Made by a program: the position numbers and the translations under genes. A DNA stretch of 64,000 nt from Acidimicrobiia bacterium. Its GTDB lineage: Bacteria > Actinomycetota > Acidimicrobiia > Spongiisociales > UBA5794. The notes beneath the pieces are model-generated. The model was not told where the DNA came from. It did no database searches and was given only the letters and a program-made list of their open reading frames with translations. The stretch is taken from assembly GCA_041611095.1 (NCBI GenBank), contig JBFINP010000003.1, positions 2,800 through 66,799 on the forward strand, read 5' to 3'. The number at the start of each line of letters is the position of its first letter. Position 1 is the first letter of the stretch. Shown one piece after another: positions 4,945 to 13,838 of the stretch.

Positions 4945-7404
4945 TCAGACCCCGGTGCGCCGTTGCCGAAGAATCTCGGCGTCTGTCTGCACGGTGGTCG
5001 TTTGATGTCCGGGAAGGGGAAGGATCCGCTCGTGGATGGCGTCGACGATCCACTCCTTCTGCGGGAAGTACTCGGGTTCGAGATCTGCCGGCGGAGCGAT
5101 CCAATTCCGTGCGCCGAGGACCACAACAGGCGCATCGAGATCGTCGAATGCCGCCCCAGCGATGGTCGTTGCCATCGTGTGCAGGAACGATCCTCGCTCT
5201 ACCGCATCCGCCGCCAACACCACCCTGCCGGTCTTCCGGACGGAATCGAGGATGGGCGTGTAGTCGAGCGGGTTCAGGAACCTGGCGTCGATCACCTCCG
5301 CAGAGAGGCCATACCGCTCTTCGAGCTCGCCGGCAGCTTCGAGGGCTCGATACAAGGTGGCGCCAATGGTCACGAGGGTGAGGTCGTCTCCGGTCCTGCG
5401 GCGGGCCGGTTGGCCGAGTTCGACGACGTAGTGGTCGACCGGGACGCCGCCCGGAACAAGCGTCTCCACCATCGGGTACAGCCGCTGGCTCTCGAAGAAC
5501 ACCACAGGATCCGTGCCTATCAGGGCGAGAGCCAGCATCCCCTTGGCGTCGTACGGCGTGGCCGGGTAGAAGACTCGGAGACCGGGCACGTGCGCCACCA
5601 TCGAGCTCCAGTCTTGCGAATGCTGGGCGCCGTACTTCGATCCGACGGAGACGCGAAGCACCAGCGGCATGGCGAGCTCACCTCCGGACATCGCTTGCCA
5701 CTTCGCCATCTGGTTGAAGATCTCGTCACCGGCGCGGCCGATGAAGTCGCTGTACATGAGCTCGACGACTGCTCGACCGCCGCTGATCGCGTAGCCAACG
5801 CCCGACCCGACGATCGCGGCTTCCGAGATCGACGTGTTGAACAGCCGGTGGTAGGGGAGGCACTCCGTCAACCCGCGGTACACGCCGAACGCTCCTCCCC
5901 AATCCCGGTTCTCCTCCCCGAAGCCCACCATCGTCGGGTCTTCGTAGAAGCGATGCACCATCGCCTCGAAGAGGGCTTCGGCGAAGGTGACCGCCATCCG
6001 CCCACTGCGAGGCTCACCTGCGTCGTCGAGGCCAAACCGATGTTTCGCTGCGGTCACGGCGAACCGAGTCTCGCCCAACGGGAGCAGGACATCCGGCTCA
6101 CCGTCGCCACAGCGAGCGGCCGTTGCCGTCGAGAACATCACGTCGGCGATCGAGGCGGTCGGCGGACCGGCTCGAGGTGACAGCGCAGGCGACACCGCCG
6201 CCTCGAAGATCTTGACCACCCGCTCTGCTGCGCTCGCCCTCATCTCGTCGAGCTCTGCACGGTCGGCATGGCCGTTGTCGATCAGGTAGTCGCCGAACGT
6301 ACGAAGTGGGTCGACGGCCGTCCACAGCTCGAGCTCCTCGGCGTCGCGATACGCGGACGCATCGGACGTCGAGTGGCCGGAGATCCGGTACGCGATCGTC
6401 TCGAGCAGCACCGGTCCCTGCCCGGCTTCCAAGATGGCCCGCTTGCGCCGGATCGCATCGGCCACCGCGAGCGGGTTGTACCCGTCGACCCGCTCGGCGT
6501 GCATGCCGTCGGGGTTGATGCCAAGACCGGCACGTGCGATCGGTCCCTGTCCCATGGTCTCGCCCTCGGGCTGGCCGCCCATCCCATAGAAGTTGTTGAC
6601 GAAGTTGAAGAGGATCGGTGGATTGCCCCCGAGCGCCGGATCCCACAACGTCCGGTACTGGTCCATCGCCGCCAAGGTCATCGCCTCCCACACCGGGCCC
6701 GTGCCGAGTGCCGAGTCTCCGACGTTGGCGATGACGATCCCGGGCCGGCGGTTGATCCGTTTGAACAGGGCTGCGCCGGTAGCGATGGGCGCCGAGCCGC
6801 CGACTATTGCGTTGTTCGGCATCACACCGAACGGCGTGATGAACGCATGCATCGAACCGCCGAGACCCCGGTTGAAGCCCGTGTCCTTTCCGAGGATCTC
6901 GGCCAGTAGGCCGTACAGCGCGAAGTCGATCGCCAAAGCGACTGGATCGTTTCCACCGAGGGACGCCACCACTTTGAAGACAGCCCCGTCGCGATAGTCC
7001 TCCATAGCGGCGAGGAGCGCTTCGGCGGAAAGCTGTCGACTGGCGGACAAGCTCTTGGCGAGCACTTCGCCATGGCTGCGATGCGACCCGAAGATCAGAT
7101 CGTCGACGCCCAGGGCGGCACTTTGGCCGACGGCGGCCGCCTCCTGCCCGATCGACAGGTGAGCGGGGCCCACGTACTCGCATGCGATGCCCTCATACCG
7201 TCCCGTGCGTTTGACCTGGTCGAGCGCCTCCTCGAACTCGCGAATCAGCGCCATGTCGCTGAACATCGTGGTCAGCCCGTCTCGACCGTATACCGCCGCT
7301 TCCTGAGCGGGATCGGACTGATACGCGTTGAGGGGCACCAGCGGTGCGTCGAGCACACCGGCGCGGCGCGCTTCCTCCGGGTCGACGCGAATTCGTTTCG
7401 TCAT
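4945..7404 (-). CDS. Thiamine-diphosphate-dependent 2-oxoacid/acetoin-type dehydrogenase E1 component, alpha and beta subunits fused (819 aa)
   Basis: Track ORF. The N-half has the TPP motif [14 protein letters not shown]...[10 protein letters not shown] (GDx...NN). The C-half has E1-beta blocks [38 protein letters not shown] and a transketolase-C-like tail. Confidence 0.9.
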
Positions 7405-8717
7405 CGCGGGCCCTTCAGGTCCTCACCGCCGTTGTGGGAGCCGGGAGCGTGGGCTCCAGCGTCACGGTCGGTTCGTGCCAGCTCGGGTGCGTTTTCCATG
7501 GCGTGAGCGAGCGTCGCCAAGAAGGCAGCCCCCGGCGCTCCGTCGACCACCTGGTGGTCGATCGTGAGCGAGAGGGGGATCTGGCGAGCCATCTGCAGGG
7601 TGCCGCCGGGGTCGACAGCCGGTCGTTCCGTCAACGCCCCGACCCCGAGAATCGCCACCTGGGGAGGATTGAGAATCGGCGTGAAGTACTCCACGCCGCT
7701 CGGGCCGAGATTGGACACTGTGAAGGTCCCACCGCCGAGCTCGTCCGGGCTGACGCTTCCCTCCAGACAGGCTGCGGAAAGCCGTTGCCGCTCCGACGCG
7801 AGTTCCGCCAGCGACATGCGATGGGCATTGCGAATGACCGGAGCCAGCAAGCCGCCCGGCGTGTCGATCGCGAATGCGAGATGCACCGCAGCGTGGCGGT
7901 AGAGAACGCCTTCGTCGAGCAATGCATTGAGCCCCGGTCGCTCCTGCAGCGCTCGTACCACCAACGCATGAATCAGGTCCGATAGGGTCACGGCGGCGGC
8001 TCCGGGCGTCGCGTCGCCCCGGGTGCGGTGCATGGCGTCGAACAAGCCGGTCGCATCGACTGTTCGATGGAGCGTCAGCTGGGCCGTCGTGTGGAGCGAG
8101 TCGAGCATGCGCTCGGCGATCACCCGGCGCGTACCTACGACCGGGTGCGCCTCGATGCCGGTCTGGGCCGTGGCACCAGCCGCCGCGGCCACGGCACCGT
8201 GCCGCGCATCGCCTCCCGCTCCTGAAGGCGATCCGGCGAGCACATCTCGCTCGATGATTCGCCCTTGGGGGCCGGAGCCGCTCACTCCGCCGACGTCGAT
8301 GCCCAGCTCGTCGGCGAGTCGCGCAGCTCGAGGCGACACTCCGGGTCTCGCGACACCTGCGACCGATCCGGTCGGAACCGATGCCGGTACGTGCGCGTGC
8401 CGGCTCTCTGGGCCACCGCGTGGTACGGCGTCACGTGCTCCCTGCCCCTGGGAAGGCGCAAAGCCAGAGATGTCGTCTCCCGGCTCGCCGATCACGCCGA
8501 CGACGGTGTGCTGGGGAACTTCGCTGGACGCCTCGCGCAGGATTGCCAGGAGGGTCCCCGACGCAGGGCTCTCGATGTCGACCGTTGCTTTGTCCGTGTC
8601 GAGCTGGAGCAACACCTCCCCGGCGGTGACCTCGTCACCTGGGCTCTTGAGCCACTCCAGGATCAGCACGTCGTCACCTGCGTTGCCGAGTTCGGGTATC
8701 ACGATGGGCGTCGGCAT
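7401..8717 (-). CDS. Dihydrolipoamide acyltransferase (E2 component)
   Basis: Lipoyl domain [19 protein letters not shown] (lipoyl-Lys), E3/E1-binding domain [32 protein letters not shown], catalytic motif [13 protein letters not shown]. Overlaps the E1 start by 4 nt. Confidence 0.9.
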
Positions 8718-8799
8718 GGAGCCTCCACGAGCATCGATCGCTGCACGTCAGCTTCGCCGGACGATCGGCTCTCGCCGCTCGGCCGCCGCTCGACGCGTC

Positions 8800-9876
8800 T
8801 CATGCTGAAGCCAGCTCTTCATCGAAGCACACTGCGACCTTCCCGCAGTCACCTGACGCCATCACGGCATACGCTTCCCCGGCTTGTTCGAGCGTGAAGC
8901 GATGTGTAACGAGTTCTGACGGATGCCGGTCCCAGCGTACGAGGCGGCCAACGAGGTCCTGCATCTTCCAGATGGACGTGACCCACGACCCGTACACGGT
9001 CTTCTGACCGTGGATCATGTCCGGAGAGGGGTTCACCTCCATCGAGCCACCCTCGCCGATGAGGGCGATGCGCCCCCATTTCCCCGTCGCTCGAATGGCA
9101 GCGGCGCGCGCCGCCGGATGCGCCGAGCACTCGACTGCCCGTTCGACCCCGCGTCCGGCGGTGAGCTCGAGGATCTCCTCGACGTTGCCGGGGCCTGCGG
9201 TGATGACCTCGTCGCACAGACCGAGATCGATCGCCAGGGCCATTCGCTCCGGCCTGACGTCGATCCCGATGATGTGGTTCGACCCCAACGCCCGGCAGAG
9301 CATCGCCGCGGCAAGACCGACAGGCCCCAGGCCGGTCACCAGCACCGCATCGTTGCCGGTGACACCGATCTTCTCCAAGCCCTCGTACACCGTGCCGAAT
9401 CCGCATGCGACCTGGGCGCCATCGACGTAGCTGAGCTCCTCGGGGAGAAGCACCAGGTCCTTCTCCTCGGCCACCATGTAATCCGCCATCCCGCCGTCAC
9501 GCTGCCAGCCGTACGCCCGCCGATACCTCTCGTCCGTGCAGGAGATCATGTATCCGCGGCGGCAGTCGTTGCACAACCCGCAGCCGGAGATGTGGTACAC
9601 GATGACGCGGTCGCCCGTCTCGAAGCGGCGGCATCCCTCTCCGGTCGCCACGATCTGCCCGGCAGGCTCGTGGCCGGCGATGACGCCTTGGTACGCCTCT
9701 GGACCACTCCCGAGGTGTTCGTGATAGATGGCGCGAATGTCCGAACCGCAGATCGTCGACGCTTTGGTGCGGATCAGCACTTCGCCGTGGCCGGGGACCG
9801 GGACATCGAACTCCCGCAACTGCGCCGAGCTGTCGCCTGGCAGCACGACGCCTCGCATGGTCTGTGGAAAGGTCAT
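8800..9876 (-). CDS. Zinc-dependent medium-chain alcohol/polyol dehydrogenase (sorbitol/threonine/butanediol dehydrogenase-like)
   Basis: Catalytic Zn motif CGSDIRAIY...GHEPAG, structural Zn motif GCGLCNDCRRG, Rossmann motif VLVTGLGPVGL. Confidence 0.9.
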   Translation of the reverse strand: MTFPQTMRGVVLPGDSSAQLREFDVPVPGHGEVLIRTKASTICGSDIRAIYHEHLGSGPEAYQGVIAGHEPAGQIVATGEGCRRFETGDRVIVYHISGCGLCNDCRRGYMISCTDERYRRAYGWQRDGGMADYMVAEEKDLVLLPEELSYVDGAQVACGFGTVYEGLEKIGVTGNDAVLVTGLGPVGLAAAMLCRALGSNHIIGIDVRPERMALAIDLGLCDEVITAGPGNVEEILELTAGRGVERAVECSAHPAARAAAIRATGKWGRIALIGEGGSMEVNPSPDMIHGQKTVYGSWVTSIWKMQDLVGRLVRWDRHPSELVTHRFTLEQAGEAYAVMASGDCGKVAVCFDEELASA

Positions 9877-9939
9877 CTCCGCTTTCGCCTCCTCCGGTCG
9901 GAGCGTACTGGCCCTCCGCTCCTCGAGGCCGGGGACGGA

Positions 9940-10983
9940 TCAGGGTGGCGTGATGTGGCCTTCGGGATCCCACAGGTCCTTCCAGTCCTGCCCCTCCTTC
10001 CAGAGGAACACCTGACCCTTGATGAGCCGGCATTGTCTGTCGGTGGCCGCGATCGCCCTCATCTCCTCGTCACTCAGCGGCGCAGAGACCACACTCTGGA
10101 GGTTGCTGAGGTAGTGGCGCGGCGTCACCGAGAACGGGATCGGAACCTGCCCGCGCTGGACCGCCCATTTGATGCATACGGTTGCCGGATGCCACCCGTG
10201 CCGCTCTGCGATGGACAGGATCACCTCGTCTTCCATGTCGACGGAGTCTGCCGGCGTGCGGTCTCTGTCCGGGCGACCAGGAGACCCGAGCGGCGAGTAT
10301 CCGATCGGAAGCATCCCGTGGCCGACGACGTAGTCGAACAGTTCTGGCTGCTGGAAGTGCGGATGGAGCTCCATCTCGTTGGCGGCGGGCTTGATCGATG
10401 CATCGCGGAGAACGAGCTCGAGCTTGGGAATCGTCATGTTGGAGGTACCTATGTGGCGGACGAGGCCCTCGTCGACGAGACGCTCCATCTGATGCCATGT
10501 CGCCATATAGGCCTCGTGGAGGTAGGGCTTGGCGTCTGGGCTACGCGACGTGACGTCGCTGCCGGGCGGGTGATGGTTGGGAAACGGCCAATGGACCAGG
10601 TAGAGGTCCAGGTAGTCGAGCTGTAGATCGCGAAGGGTCCGGTGGCATGAGATCAGTACATCGCCTTCACCGTGCATGTCGTTCCACAGCTTCGACGTCA
10701 CCCACAACTCCTCGCGGTTGACGCCGCGCGCCATCAGGTGCGTCAACGACTCGCCGATCAGGTGCTCGTTCCCGTATACGGAAGCGCAGTCGAAGTGGCG
10801 GCATCCCACCGCAGCTGCGCCGATGACCGCCTCGGCCACCTTCGCGCCCGGGACGTGATCAGATCCGAAGGTACCGAGGCCGATGGCGGGGATCGTGGCG
10901 CCGGTGTAGAGCGCCCGTTGCGGTACGAGCGCCGGTTCGACGGATCCTGCAGCGGATTGCGAGTCTGGCAGGTCGCTCCCCAT
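9940..10983 (-). CDS. Aldo/keto reductase
   Basis: IPAIGLGTFGSDH, HFDCASVYGNE, DYLDLYLVHWP, IGTSNM and GYSPLGS are AKR signature blocks. Confidence 0.9.
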   Translation of the reverse strand: MGSDLPDSQSAAGSVEPALVPQRALYTGATIPAIGLGTFGSDHVPGAKVAEAVIGAAAVGCRHFDCASVYGNEHLIGESLTHLMARGVNREELWVTSKLWNDMHGEGDVLISCHRTLRDLQLDYLDLYLVHWPFPNHHPPGSDVTSRSPDAKPYLHEAYMATWHQMERLVDEGLVRHIGTSNMTIPKLELVLRDASIKPAANEMELHPHFQQPELFDYVVGHGMLPIGYSPLGSPGRPDRDRTPADSVDMEDEVILSIAERHGWHPATVCIKWAVQRGQVPIPFSVTPRHYLSNLQSVVSAPLSDEEMRAIAATDRQCRLIKGQVFLWKEGQDWKDLWDPEGHITPP

Positions 10984-11022
10984 GGCGTTTCTCGGCCTCC
11001 TCGGGTCTACGCCGGTGCCGAT

Positions 11023-11463
11023 CTAGCGGTCGTCGACCGGTGTCACACCCTTCTTCAAGAGGATGTTGCCGTACTTGGCGGTCTCGCCGGTCATGACGAC
11101 GGCGAACGCCAGACGAGCCCGGTCGTAGAAAGCGAACCGGTCGATTCTGGCGATGGCGGGTGCGGCTGCGACGTGGCGGTCGATTGCTTCCCTGTAGGCC
11201 GCTTCGACGGCCGGGTCGAGCGTGTCTCCTTCGACGGCGCTCATCATCACCAACGGATCCTCGACGTAGCGGTCCAGCTCGAAGAGCGGCAGCATCGCAT
11301 CCAGGAGCGTTGGGATCTCGAGGCCATCGGCGCGCAGCACCAGCTCGTTCACCGAGTGGCCGGGGAAGTGGGCATCGGCGAGGACGATCTCGTCGCCGTG
11401 TCCCATCCGGTAGATCGTCGCCAGTAGCTCGGGCGAGAAGGCCGGAGATAATCCCTTGAGCAT
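11023..11463 (-). CDS. RbsD/FucU-family sugar mutarotase/transport-associated protein
   Basis: Frame of ORF 11023..11517, trimmed to ATG 11463. [34 protein letters not shown] is typical of the RbsD/FucU N-terminus. Confidence 0.85.
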
Positions 11464-11572
11464 GTCTTCCCTATGGCGTGGTGCGCCGGAGTAGGCCCGA
11501 CTGGCCCCGCTCGGCATGGACGAGGACTATAGGCCGCGTCACGTGGGAGCTACCGATGAGGTCGATGGGCGT

Positions 11573-12424
11573 TCAGGAGGACCGGCTCCAGCCGTCGGCG
11601 TGGAGTTGGTGCTTCGGGGCGTCGAAATCGGTGCGGTCGAGGAGCCCGGCGACATCATCGATCTCGAGGATCGGGCCGTAGTTGCGGAACTCGCTCCCGG
11701 AGGGGACGGTGAGGCTCCCGTCCGGGAAGACCATGGCGTAGAGCCGGTCGAGGGTCTCGTGGCTCAGCCAGTTGATGCGGTAGGCGTGGGGCGCCGCCTC
11801 TACGTCGCCGCGCAGGGCGGCGAACTCGGCGTCGCTGACGATCACCTGCGGCCAGTCCACGTTGGTGGACATCGAGCGGGGGAACGCCTGGAAGACGTTG
11901 TAGAAGAGGCGCCCCGGTAGCCGATCGGCCCATTGGTCGAGGAGGCGGGCGATGGTGGGTACGTCGTCGAGGTTGGACCGGGTGACCGGCGTCGCCACCT
12001 TGACGTCGATCCCGGGATGGCGCTCGAGCAGTGCGAGCGCCGCCATCACGGCGGCGAAGTGGCCCGGCTCTTTGGTGCGGCGGGACACCTCCTCGGTGGC
12101 GCCGTCTAGCGGCAACGAGATCAGGTCGATGTCATCCCCGTAGGTGTCGAGGAAGTCGGTTGTGAGCCGGTCGCCGGTGGTCGACACCGCCACCTCGAGA
12201 CCGTGGGCGGCGGCGTGGCGGATCAGCTCGCCGAGGTCGGCACGCTGGAGCGGATCGCCGCCGGTGAAGACGATCCGCCGGCTCCCCGTTGCGGCGATCT
12301 TGGCCACGATGGCAAGGGCGGTGGCGGTGTCGGCGCCCGGGATCCCCTGGGGGCCCCAGCAGTAGGCGCACGCCTGGCTGCACTCGGACGTGACATGGAA
12401 GTCGAAAGTGGCGACCGCAGCCAT
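11573..12424 (-). CDS. Radical SAM enzyme with a single [4Fe-4S] cluster; block order resembles viperin/pVip family (hypothesis)
   Basis: CX3CX2C motif in FHVTSECSQACAYCWG, GGE-like motif IVFTGGDPL, and no further Cys, so no SPASM or auxiliary cluster. By-eye collinearity with human viperin blocks: YGDDIDLISLPLDGATEEV vs YGEYLDILAISCDSFDEEV, YNVFQ vs WKVFQ, VIVSDAEFAAL vs FVIGDEEFERF, and a C-terminal ...ADGW. Confidence 0.85.
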   Translation of the reverse strand: MAAVATFDFHVTSECSQACAYCWGPQGIPGADTATALAIVAKIAATGSRRIVFTGGDPLQRADLGELIRHAAAHGLEVAVSTTGDRLTTDFLDTYGDDIDLISLPLDGATEEVSRRTKEPGHFAAVMAALALLERHPGIDVKVATPVTRSNLDDVPTIARLLDQWADRLPGRLFYNVFQAFPRSMSTNVDWPQVIVSDAEFAALRGDVEAAPHAYRINWLSHETLDRLYAMVFPDGSLTVPSGSEFRNYGPILEIDDVAGLLDRTDFDAPKHQLHADGWSRSS

Positions 12425-12526
12425 CCTGCGTCCTTTCCCTCAGAGATGCCTGGACAAGTATCGCGGAGCCCGGCCGGTTCGATATTGCGCAGCGCCTGAG
12501 GTCGCGCACGCTCGTTCGGACACCGG

Positions 12527-12637
12527 TCAGAGCGGCGAGGAGACGTCGCTCTTCACGTCGATGATGTCCCTCGGCTCGAGGAAGTAGCCATTGCCGGCGA
12601 GGAGGTCAGGGGTGGCCCCGTAGAGGTTCGGGGCCAT
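12527..12637 (-). CDS. Unannotated 36-codon ORF directly upstream of the radical SAM gene (MAPNLYGATPDLLAGNGYFLEPRDIIDVKSDVSSPL)
   Basis: Below the ORF-track size cut-off; found by hand. 33 of 35 sense codons after ATG end in G/C, which is a coding-like GC3 pattern. There is no good SD sequence upstream and no alternative start in the 22 upstream codons. It could be a real small protein or peptide, or a fragment of a decayed gene. Confidence 0.3.
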   Translation of the reverse strand: MAPNLYGATPDLLAGNGYFLEPRDIIDVKSDVSSPL

Positions 12638-12689
12638 GGGTACGGAAGCTGCGCGGCGGAGGGCTCCGCCGGCGTGTTCTTCCTTGGCC

Positions 12690-13838
12690 TCACGGCAGCG
12701 GGCGAGCTTCGCTGGGACGGCGGCGAGGAGCGGGCCGATCGCCGTTGAGCGCGGCGTTGCGCACGTCCTCGACGCGCCTGGCGATCACGTACTCGGTGAT
12801 GGCGATCTTCACGAGGGCGGCCACGGGCAGCGCCAGGAGCGCTCCGAGCGCCCCGGCGAGGCTGCCGCCGATCATCAGCGCAAGGATGACGGACGGTGGA
12901 CTCAGATCCACCGCCCGCTTCATCACTCTGGGAGCGATCACGTAGTTCTCGATCTGCTGGTAGACGACGATGAAAACGATGGCGGCGATCATCAGACCGG
13001 TGCCCTCGCTCGCCGCCAGCGCTACGACCGGTGCGGCGCCGAGGAAGACCCCAACTACGGGCACGAGGTCGGTGACACCGATCCACAGCGCAAGTGCAAG
13101 AGGGTACGGAATGCCCATCAGCCACAGCACGCCGAAAGAGACGCCGGTCGCGATCACCGAGACGGTCAGGTTGCCTGCAATGTATCCCGCGACTTTGTCG
13201 ACCGACTGGTTGACCATCCGCAGGAACTCGGGACGGTCTTCCCGGCGCAGCAGCCGCAGCATGAACTGCTTGATCGAGGGAAAGGCGTAAGCGAAGTACG
13301 GGGTGAGGATGAGGACGGTGACGGCGTTGAACGTGGCACCGGCGACGCCGCTGACCGCCGGGAGGAGGCCGGTTGGTCCGGCATCGACCATGGCCGTCCA
13401 ATCGAAGCGGTCGACCAGCGTGGCCAGCGGCCCACCGCCGGCGCGGACGTCGTCGAGGACGGCGGGCAGCGCGGCGATGATCTCGTCGATCTGGGCTATC
13501 AGCATCGGAACCAATGCCAGCAACACGGCCACTGCGGCGGCGACGCCACTCACGAGCACGACGCCCATTGCCTGCCAGCGAGCAAGACCGCGCCGCTCGA
13601 GCCACTCGAGGGATGGTTGCATGCCAAGCGCCAGCACGAACGACGCGATCACTACCAGCAACACGCCCTGGAGCTTCACTGCGAGCAGAACGGAGATGAC
13701 GATCCCGATGACACCGGCGGCGATCTCGAACCAATAACGAGGCGCCGGCCACCTGAGGCCCACCTGGGCCACATTGGGCTCGTCGATTCGATGGGCCTGG
13801 TCGATCATCTGCGGCAGCCCTCCCGGCTCGGCGAACAC
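12690..13838 (-). CDS. AI-2E family transporter (PerM/UPF0118)
   Basis: Track ORF. Polytopic membrane protein with a family-typical C-terminal block ...ALLALPVAALVKI... and a charged tail. Confidence 0.9.
   Translation of the reverse strand: MFAEPGGLPQMIDQAHRIDEPNVAQVGLRWPAPRYWFEIAAGVIGIVISVLLAVKLQGVLLVVIASFVLALGMQPSLEWLERRGLARWQAMGVVLVSGVAAAVAVLLALVPMLIAQIDEIIAALPAVLDDVRAGGGPLATLVDRFDWTAMVDAGPTGLLPAVSGVAGATFNAVTVLILTPYFAYAFPSIKQFMLRLLRREDRPEFLRMVNQSVDKVAGYIAGNLTVSVIATGVSFGVLWLMGIPYPLALALWIGVTDLVPVVGVFLGAAPVVALAASEGTGLMIAAIVFIVVYQQIENYVIAPRVMKRAVDLSPPSVILALMIGGSLAGALGALLALPVAALVKIAITEYVIARRVEDVRNAALNGDRPAPRRRPSEARPLP

Follow-up and report, generated by a model that had tools for sequence, protein, structure and literature searches.

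A stand-alone radical SAM enzyme from an Acidimicrobiia genome that has the viperin fold and probably belongs to a family distinct from viperin

Is a single-gene radical S-adenosylmethionine (SAM) enzyme that looks like viperin also a viperin? This question is raised by a gene at positions 11573–12424 (minus strand) of a 64,000-nucleotide stretch of the Acidimicrobiia bacterium assembly GCA_041611095.1 (contig JBFINP010000003.1, positions 2,800 to 66,799), the whole of which is called the window here. An earlier note, made from the letters of this DNA, had read the product as a viperin-like enzyme, of the type that makes chain-terminating 3'-deoxy-3',4'-didehydro-nucleoside triphosphates (ddhNTPs), and had pointed to a 36-codon open reading frame (ORF) just upstream as a possible substrate peptide, partner protein or gene remnant. 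We found that the enzyme is built like a viperin while its profile score, its place in a tree and its active-site residues differ from those of viperins. Taken as one explanation, together with the mechanism and the origin of the small ORF proposed below, these results make it probable that the enzyme, rather than being a viperin, represents a separate and uncharacterised family of radical SAM enzymes with the viperin fold.

The open frame encodes a stand-alone enzyme of 283 residues with just three cysteines, C15, C19 and C22. They lie within SECSQACAYCWG and form the cluster motif C15-x3-C19-x2-C22, and a SAM motif, GGDP, is located at residues 55–58. The sole Pfam domain is PF04055 (Radical_SAM), with 68.2 bits against a gathering cut-off of 29.5, and the same Pfam search of the enzyme detected no SPASM or twitch domain. 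The ORF and the domain search therefore agree with the earlier description of a protein with one CX3CX2C cluster and no other cysteine, and the viperin-type motif blocks claimed for it are also present (FHVT, FTGGDP, YNVFQ and a C-terminal GW). Among these, YNVFQ (residues 175–179) stands where viperin has WKVFQ, and the C-terminal tail reads FDAPKHxxHxxGW.

An AlphaFold2 model of the enzyme, built from an alignment of 30 family sequences, had a mean predicted local distance difference test score of 94.3 and a predicted template modelling score of 0.92. When this model was compared with the Protein Data Bank by Foldseek, the top 20 matches were all viperins or viperin-like enzymes, including those of mouse (6Q2P/5VSL), Nematostella (7N7H) and Trichoderma (7N7I, 9DFN and 9DGW), and these matches had template modelling (TM) scores of 0.81–0.87 in both normalisations and a root-mean-square deviation (rmsd) of 2.5–2.8 Å over ~290 columns. 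The next folds, SkfB, DesII and MoaA, had TM scores of 0.6–0.7 and rmsd >6 Å. The profile searches gave the same picture, in that, among the NCBIfam and PADLOC models, those for viperin alone align along the whole enzyme (NF038283 at residues 6–271 and the PADLOC prokaryotic viperin, pVip, at residues 8–271), while models for SPASM maturases, AhbD, MoaA and others cover only its generic core (residues 9–165). The enzyme is thus predicted to have the full viperin architecture, a partial (beta-alpha)6 barrel closed by a C-terminal extension. In this sense the term viperin-like was well chosen; it holds for the fold and the full-length profile alignment, and it does not extend to being a viperin or to making ddhNTPs, as described below.

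On the NCBIfam viperin model NF038283, the enzyme scored 68 bits over its full-length alignment, whereas the curated equivalog cut-off is 180. Because ordinary MoaA proteins, searched in 301 genomes of the class, score equally (60–72 bits, over their N-terminal half), the score of the enzyme taken by itself is at noise level. No true viperin above the cut-off was found in the 301 genomes. Viperin is also the best NCBIfam model for all 79 of the nearest representatives in sequence space, and those tested scored 91–170 bits, below the cut-off as well; the enzyme family is the most divergent among these viperin-like representatives.

For the phylogeny, we combined the enzyme family with 77 representatives of the nearest sequence space collected by an exhaustive profile search, MoaA outgroups and 14 reference viperins, which comprise three crystallised eukaryotic enzymes, taken from alignments to Protein Data Bank entries, and five Asgard and six bacterial sequences, taken from the supplement of Shomar et al. 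2023. The tree is a quick search with Shimodaira-Hasegawa-like approximate likelihood ratio test (SH-aLRT) support only. In this tree, the 14 viperins group together and the enzyme family makes up a clade of its own, with an SH-aLRT support of 100% for both clades. Such a position would fit a sister lineage of the viperins as well as one among many viperin-like lineages, and the weak backbone favours neither.

The active site distinguishes the two clades in more specific terms. We compared the columns that are invariant in the 14 viperins with the enzyme family (32 rows), using mouse numbering for viperin. Several viperin residues are kept in the family: H79 (H10 in the enzyme), K120 (as R50), K220 (K142), D182, N229 and Tyr302 (Y229). 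The last of these is present in 31 of the 32 family rows and invariant in the 30-sequence alignment, and the aligned Y302 is found in 14/14 viperins, where it was proposed as the electron and proton donor in dehydration (PMC9642334). Other viperin-invariant residues are replaced, N77 by D8, S180 by P105, N222 by alanine or cysteine at position 144 (A144 here), R245 by F174, W246 by Y175, K247 by N176 and D306 by F233, and the viperin RGGxYxW tail becomes KHxxHxxGW. In nearly every case the replacing residue is itself invariant in the family. The loss of K247 is peculiar to the enzyme family, because 71 of the 77 non-viperin representatives, and MoaA as well, keep a basic residue at this position.

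A similar change is seen where viperin recognises the base. The beta-8 loop of viperins carries several types of nucleobase pocket, with Cys314/Lys319, Arg, Asn or Asp, of which C314 and K319 contact the nucleobase (Shomar et al. 2023). In the enzyme, the position aligned with the nucleobase-contacting Cys/Asn314 is Pro241 (proline in 30 of the 32 family rows) and the position aligned with K319 is Phe/Tyr. Pro241 agrees with none of the described pocket types.

From the fold and these residues, we propose the following chemistry. The reduced [4Fe-4S] cluster would cleave SAM reductively, and the resulting 5'-deoxyadenosyl radical would take a hydrogen from a small, negatively charged substrate inside the barrel, probably a nucleotide- or sugar-phosphate-like compound with fewer phosphates or less charge than a nucleoside triphosphate (NTP). 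Y229 may then quench or reduce the substrate radical, as proposed for viperin dehydration, and what is released would be a modified metabolite of nucleotide type, distinct from the canonical ddhNTPs.

The enzyme does not stand alone in sequence databases. Its family contains >1000 clusters at 90% identity, and relatives are present in 289 of ~185,000 species genomes, at 50–77% identity across phyla; the carriers include Acidimicrobiia, Anaerolineales, Gemmatimonadota, Ignavibacteria and Armatimonadota, among others. Sixty columns are invariant among 30 diverse members, and the ratio of nonsynonymous to synonymous substitution rates is 0.13–0.19 against relatives of 88%, 84% and 76% identity, values that indicate purifying selection. 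The distribution is nevertheless patchy. The gene is found in 5 of the 41 nearest genomes and in about 7 of 301 genomes of the class (~2%), and a genome of the same genus that is 93% complete, in nine contigs, does not have it.

The sequences around the gene suggest how it spreads. A ribosome-binding site, GGGAAAGGA (12431–12439, minus strand), is located 6 nt ahead of the ATG, and its AAGGA is kept in the 88%, 84% and 76% identical relatives despite different upstream genes. About 33 nt upstream of the start codon there is a −10-like hexamer, GATACT (12457–12462, minus strand), which recurs unchanged or as a variant (CATACT, TACAGT, TAGACT, TATACT) at the same distance in most relatives, while the Anaerolineales copies have a full TTGACA-N17-TATACT upstream of the gene. 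The conserved element and the Anaerolineales promoter together point to a promoter of the enzyme gene's own. Among close relatives, the similarity of the flanks ends ~45 nt upstream of the ATG and exactly at the stop codon. The place of the gene varies even within the genus. Downstream of it, the 88% relative and the other carrier in the genus have genes for a nitroreductase and a methyltransferase of the PCMT type; in the 84% relative, a sulfotransferase gene precedes it. Since the ribosome-binding site and the −10-like hexamer travel with the ORF while the flanks differ, the gene behaves as a self-contained, horizontally mobile one-gene unit, and it appears to have moved among Acidimicrobiia, Anaerolineales, Gemmatimonadota and other phyla. 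No family copy was found on sequenced plasmids or phages. A mobile unit of one gene implies, in turn, an accessory function whose only requirements are common metabolites and a general reductant.

Some individual copies should be read with care. Three contigs (L008, L018 and L050) with enzymes 65–75% identical to those of Acidimicrobiia carry the labels Saprospiraceae, Aggregatilineales and Gammaproteobacteria; these labels reflect either recent horizontal transfer or mis-binned contigs of metagenome-assembled genomes, which qualifies the distribution across phyla. Two copies look damaged. The one at L050:5001-5849 has an out-of-frame stretch (columns ~101–145) between good matches, and the one at L049:3382-4221 is split into ORFs of 93 and 123 residues; both are either assembly errors or pseudogenes. 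In addition, a representative of the core family, P0121 (439 aa), has an N-terminal PNPOx-like domain binding flavin mononucleotide (FMN) (PF01243, E = 1.2e-12) joined to the radical SAM part. This single case could be a real fusion that hints at a flavin reductant or substrate, or a read-through of gene calling.

The strong purifying selection and very high conservation might also be expected of an unannotated housekeeping or cofactor-biosynthetic radical SAM enzyme, MoaA-like or similar, and the metabolic genes around the locus and the FMN-binding domain fused to, or read through into, P0121 would suit such a role. An essential pathway does not fit, however, because the gene is patchy among close relatives and across the class and is missing from the near-complete genome of the same genus, and no pathway neighbour is conserved. 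The genomes of the class, moreover, have a separate MoaA-type match to the viperin model (in G000 at C110:171-671, with 62 bits over the N-terminal half only), and the fold match to MoaA is far poorer than that to viperin (TM ~0.6, rmsd >8). MoaA, the GTP 3',8-cyclase that serves as the outgroup of viperin phylogenies, does share the radical SAM core, aligns over the N-terminal 160 residues and uses this core on a nucleotide, but its C-terminal part is different, with another domain and a second [4Fe-4S] cluster; MoaA-type matches occur in most genomes of the class, whereas the enzyme family is rare. A housekeeping role is thus quite improbable.

Prokaryotic viperins typically lie in a defence island or beside a nucleotide kinase gene, and the surroundings of this family are different. 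We clustered 731 neighbouring ORFs from 80 loci all against all, and no conserved operon partner emerged, as no cluster occurred in more than 14 loci. The neighbour clusters that do recur represent lineage-specific synteny, with a PlsC-like acyltransferase, a heliorhodopsin and an ABC ATPase in some Actinomycetota and LysA in Gemmatimonadota. Ferritin is the commonest Pfam neighbour, in Anaerolineales only. The 128 immediate flanking genes of ~70 loci gave ~10 PADLOC matches and no nucleotide kinase, that is, neither a defence island nor a kinase context.

Two of these arrangements can be described in detail. In the Anaerolineales loci L036-L054 (for example L037:3952-6460), a convergent ferritin gene and, downstream, a TPR/peptidase-C39-like gene consistently border the enzyme gene, and nine Anaerolineales loci have a second radical SAM protein of ~400 aa with a helix-hairpin-helix tail upstream, a synteny that is not found in other phyla. 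In the Actinomycetota loci L019, L025, L028, L031 and L060, a PlsC-type acyltransferase gene overlaps the enzyme stop codon by 4 nt, suggesting translational coupling, and L025, L028, L031 and L060 have a divergent heliorhodopsin gene on the upstream side of the enzyme gene, where L019 has an unclustered 186-aa ORF.

We can now weigh the possibility that the enzyme is a divergent prokaryotic viperin, a stand-alone ddhNTP synthase that acts on CTP, UTP or GTP and makes chain terminators for anti-phage defence. It has the full viperin fold, it keeps the equivalents of Y302, K120, K220 and H79, and its patchy, horizontally transferred single-gene distribution resembles that of stand-alone pVips, for which PADLOC even includes a model of viperins without kinase association. 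On the other hand, its score of 68 against 180 bits equals that of the MoaA noise, and it lies outside the fully supported viperin clade. R245, K247, N222, N77, D306 and RGGxYxW, invariant in 14 viperins from three domains of life, are exchanged for family-invariant residues that are not equivalent, and the proline in the nucleobase loop is unlike the Cys/Lys, Arg, Asn and Asp pockets. The sequence conservation across phyla is also unusually high, and the ~70 loci lack the defence-island or kinase context. We therefore regard a divergent viperin as unlikely, and the viperin and ddhNTP reading of the earlier note is not supported, given the placement outside the viperin clade, the replaced invariant residues and the sub-cut-off score. 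These are largely the grounds on which the earlier note itself would have had it rejected.

Several points nevertheless weigh against the assignment to a distinct family. The PADLOC pVip models align the enzyme end to end with E = 1.9e-24 and 1.9e-22, and the branches between the clades of the tree are weak (80–89%). The placement of the replaced residues depends on a sequence alignment to the 5VSL/6Q2P numbering. K120, K220, R245 and K247 together with the tail reportedly clamp the triphosphate of viperin in 6Q2P; if this is right, half of the clamp would be gone in the enzyme. The retained basic residues R50, K142, K271, H272, H275 and R183 may, however, bind a triphosphate in another geometry, and the chemistry proposed above is inferred purely from the fold and the residues. 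With these points considered, a distinct viperin-fold family remains the explanation that we find probable.

Comparison with known systems places this family more clearly. Viperin (RSAD2) and the pVips (NF038283; 5VSL, 6Q2P, 7N7H, 7N7I, 9DFN, 9DGW) share with it a length of ~280 aa, the single CX3CX2C cluster, GG(E/D)P, the fold with its barrel-closing C-terminal extension, the strand motif (W/Y)xVFQ and the ability to occur as a one-gene unit. The enzyme family differs in its separate clade, its sub-cut-off hidden Markov model score, its replaced residues and its KHxxHxxGW tail, and it has no kinase partner or defence-island context. OpnA of Ophion, an anti-jumbo-phage system in which a viperin-related radical SAM protein acts with PHP and phosphoribosyltransferase (PRTase) proteins (bioRxiv 10.1101/2025.09.30.679545), and a radical SAM protein of E. 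coli IncF plasmids belong to the same broad radiation of ~280-aa proteins and share the PLDG and xxVFQ/YQF motifs. These proteins keep the W-(K/R) pair where the enzyme family has Y-N, the identity is ~25%, and they are encoded in operons with PHP, PRTase, kinase or Nudix genes, unlike the enzyme family, which has no partners. Partners that handle nucleotides are thus frequent in the wider viperin-like radiation, and the enzyme family lacks them.

The IncF operon deserves a description of its own. Two E. coli IncF plasmids carry the 25%-identical viperin-like gene in an operon with genes for a deoxynucleoside kinase and NudI. In NZ_CP045714.1 (20793–22790; L139:4980-6977), a conjugative IncF plasmid, the radical SAM gene overlaps the deoxynucleoside kinase gene by 4 nt, nudI follows 1 nt later, and toxin-antitoxin pairs, RelE/Phd and Doc/Phd, border the operon. 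The protein keeps a W-R pair at the viperin W246/K247 positions. From its gene content, the operon looks like a nucleotide-modifying operon of the defence type.

What, then, is the 36-codon ORF upstream of the enzyme? It lies at 12527–12637 on the minus strand, between the transporter gene described below and the enzyme gene, ~100 nt upstream of the latter. Thirty-three of its 35 internal codons end in G or C (quoted as a G+C content at third codon positions, GC3, of 0.92), and no purine-rich Shine-Dalgarno sequence precedes it; both features were as the earlier note had listed them. A six-frame search of 41 related genomes gave three matches to the 36-aa peptide (E = 3.9e-4, 3.8e-3 and 4.9e-3 per genome), all at the same place, the last ~25 residues of open frames of 358–427 aa that carry the ATxxLLAGNGYxFExRGxIxVKGKG end of class III adenylate/guanylate cyclases. 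One of the matched proteins (L127) is a Pfam Guanylate_cyc protein at 6e-60. Residues 8–29 of the ORF (nt 12551–12616) share 60–68% identity with three Guanylate_cyc proteins, each time at this C-terminal place, and a pairwise BLASTP of the peptide and a cyclase gave 15/22 identities (E = 3e-07). The frame of the ORF is open for 85 codons, of which the last ~30 are cyclase-like, and the start of this frame overlaps the 3' end of the transporter gene.

On these matches, the ORF is quite likely what is left of the 3' end of a class III adenylate/guanylate cyclase gene (PF00211), without a function of its own. Our confidence stops there because the match is short and the fragment is too small for Pfam: neither the ORF nor the 85-aa open frame around it gave a Pfam match, which, with a similarity of only 22 residues, speaks against the remnant. 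The coding-like GC3 is best explained as a fossil, given the C-terminal similarity to cyclases, and the ORF is most likely a decaying cyclase fragment that has nothing to do with the enzyme. The fresh gene remnant among the options of the earlier note is the one that gained support.

The other options, a substrate peptide or a partner protein, would make the enzyme a maturase of a ribosomally synthesised and post-translationally modified peptide (RiPP), or another peptide-modifying enzyme, with the 36-aa product as precursor or partner. The co-directional position of the ORF ~100 nt upstream, its coding-like GC3 and weak matches of the N-terminal core to sactipeptide and SPASM maturase models are in line with such a role. 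In contrast, the enzyme has no SPASM or twitch domain and no auxiliary cysteine, the maturase matches cover the generic core only (residues 9–164; 77 against a cut-off of 625 bits), and the ORF, besides having no Shine-Dalgarno sequence, resembles the C-terminal end of an adenylate cyclase. A tblastn search of 80 loci with the peptide gave no match near the enzyme, and the relatives of 88% and 84% identity, with unrelated DNA upstream of the enzyme gene, do not have the ORF. Since the ORF is thus missing next to the enzyme in every relative examined, the peptide and partner readings are effectively refuted, and a RiPP maturase is extremely improbable.

The genes on both sides of the enzyme gene are metabolic, and no kinase is found among its neighbours in the window. 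Upstream lies the gene for an AI-2E family transporter (12690–13838, minus strand). A G+C-rich inverted repeat, CGGCGGAGGGCTCCGCCG (12654–12671), directly past its stop codon could be a candidate terminator hairpin for the transporter gene, and no U-tract follows it on the minus strand. Downstream is the gene for an L-fucose mutarotase (FucU/RbsD; 11023–11517, minus strand), the first gene of a sugar/2-oxoacid operon. Pfam assigned the four same-strand genes downstream to the FucU mutarotase, an aldo-keto reductase, a Zn-dependent alcohol dehydrogenase and a 2-oxoacid dehydrogenase E2 component, and the minus-strand operon, which contains these and further genes, occupies window positions 4945–11463. 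These domain assignments bear out the placement of the enzyme gene between an AI-2E transporter and a sugar/acetoin-type operon without a kinase. Both neighbours are context and not partners, because the transporter has no close ortholog in genomes of the same genus (31% identity in two of them; the best match, 44%, is in another genus) and FucU adjoins the enzyme in no relative. The intergenic DNA between transporter and enzyme had no match in the genomes of the same genus, and no empty site could be reconstructed. Together with the cyclase fossil, this suggests that the surroundings of the transporter gene are a variable, rearranged region of the chromosome.

The role of the enzyme is harder to narrow down than its family. 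It could be antiviral, antimetabolite-producing or a niche metabolic function; the patchy distribution argues against housekeeping, and the gene context argues against a classical defence island. A bolder view, which we hold only tentatively and think rather doubtful, is that the enzyme applies the radical and tyrosine chemistry of viperin to a compound with few or no phosphates, for instance a nucleoside, a nucleoside mono- or diphosphate (NMP or NDP) or an NDP-sugar, and so makes a new modified nucleotide or antimetabolite that is not a ddhNTP. It would then be a self-sufficient antiviral or allelopathic effector, one gene spreading horizontally among soil and sediment bacteria, or else belong to a non-immune, metabolic lineage out of which viperin immunity was recruited.

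Few immune enzymes are common to animals, archaea and bacteria; viperin is one of them, and its products serve as starting points for antiviral nucleotides. The locus carries two cautions for the reading of such genomes. Permissive defence-finder models (here PADLOC pVip, at E = 1e-24) call a viperin where a curated cut-off and the active-site residues disagree, and a small ORF with coding-like GC3 in a high-GC genome can be a pseudogene fossil. The family described here keeps the fold and the catalytic tyrosine of viperin while its substrate pocket appears to be rebuilt. This makes it a candidate source of new nucleotide chemistry by radical SAM enzymes, and it can serve to test how far enzymes of the viperin type reach beyond ddhNTP synthesis.

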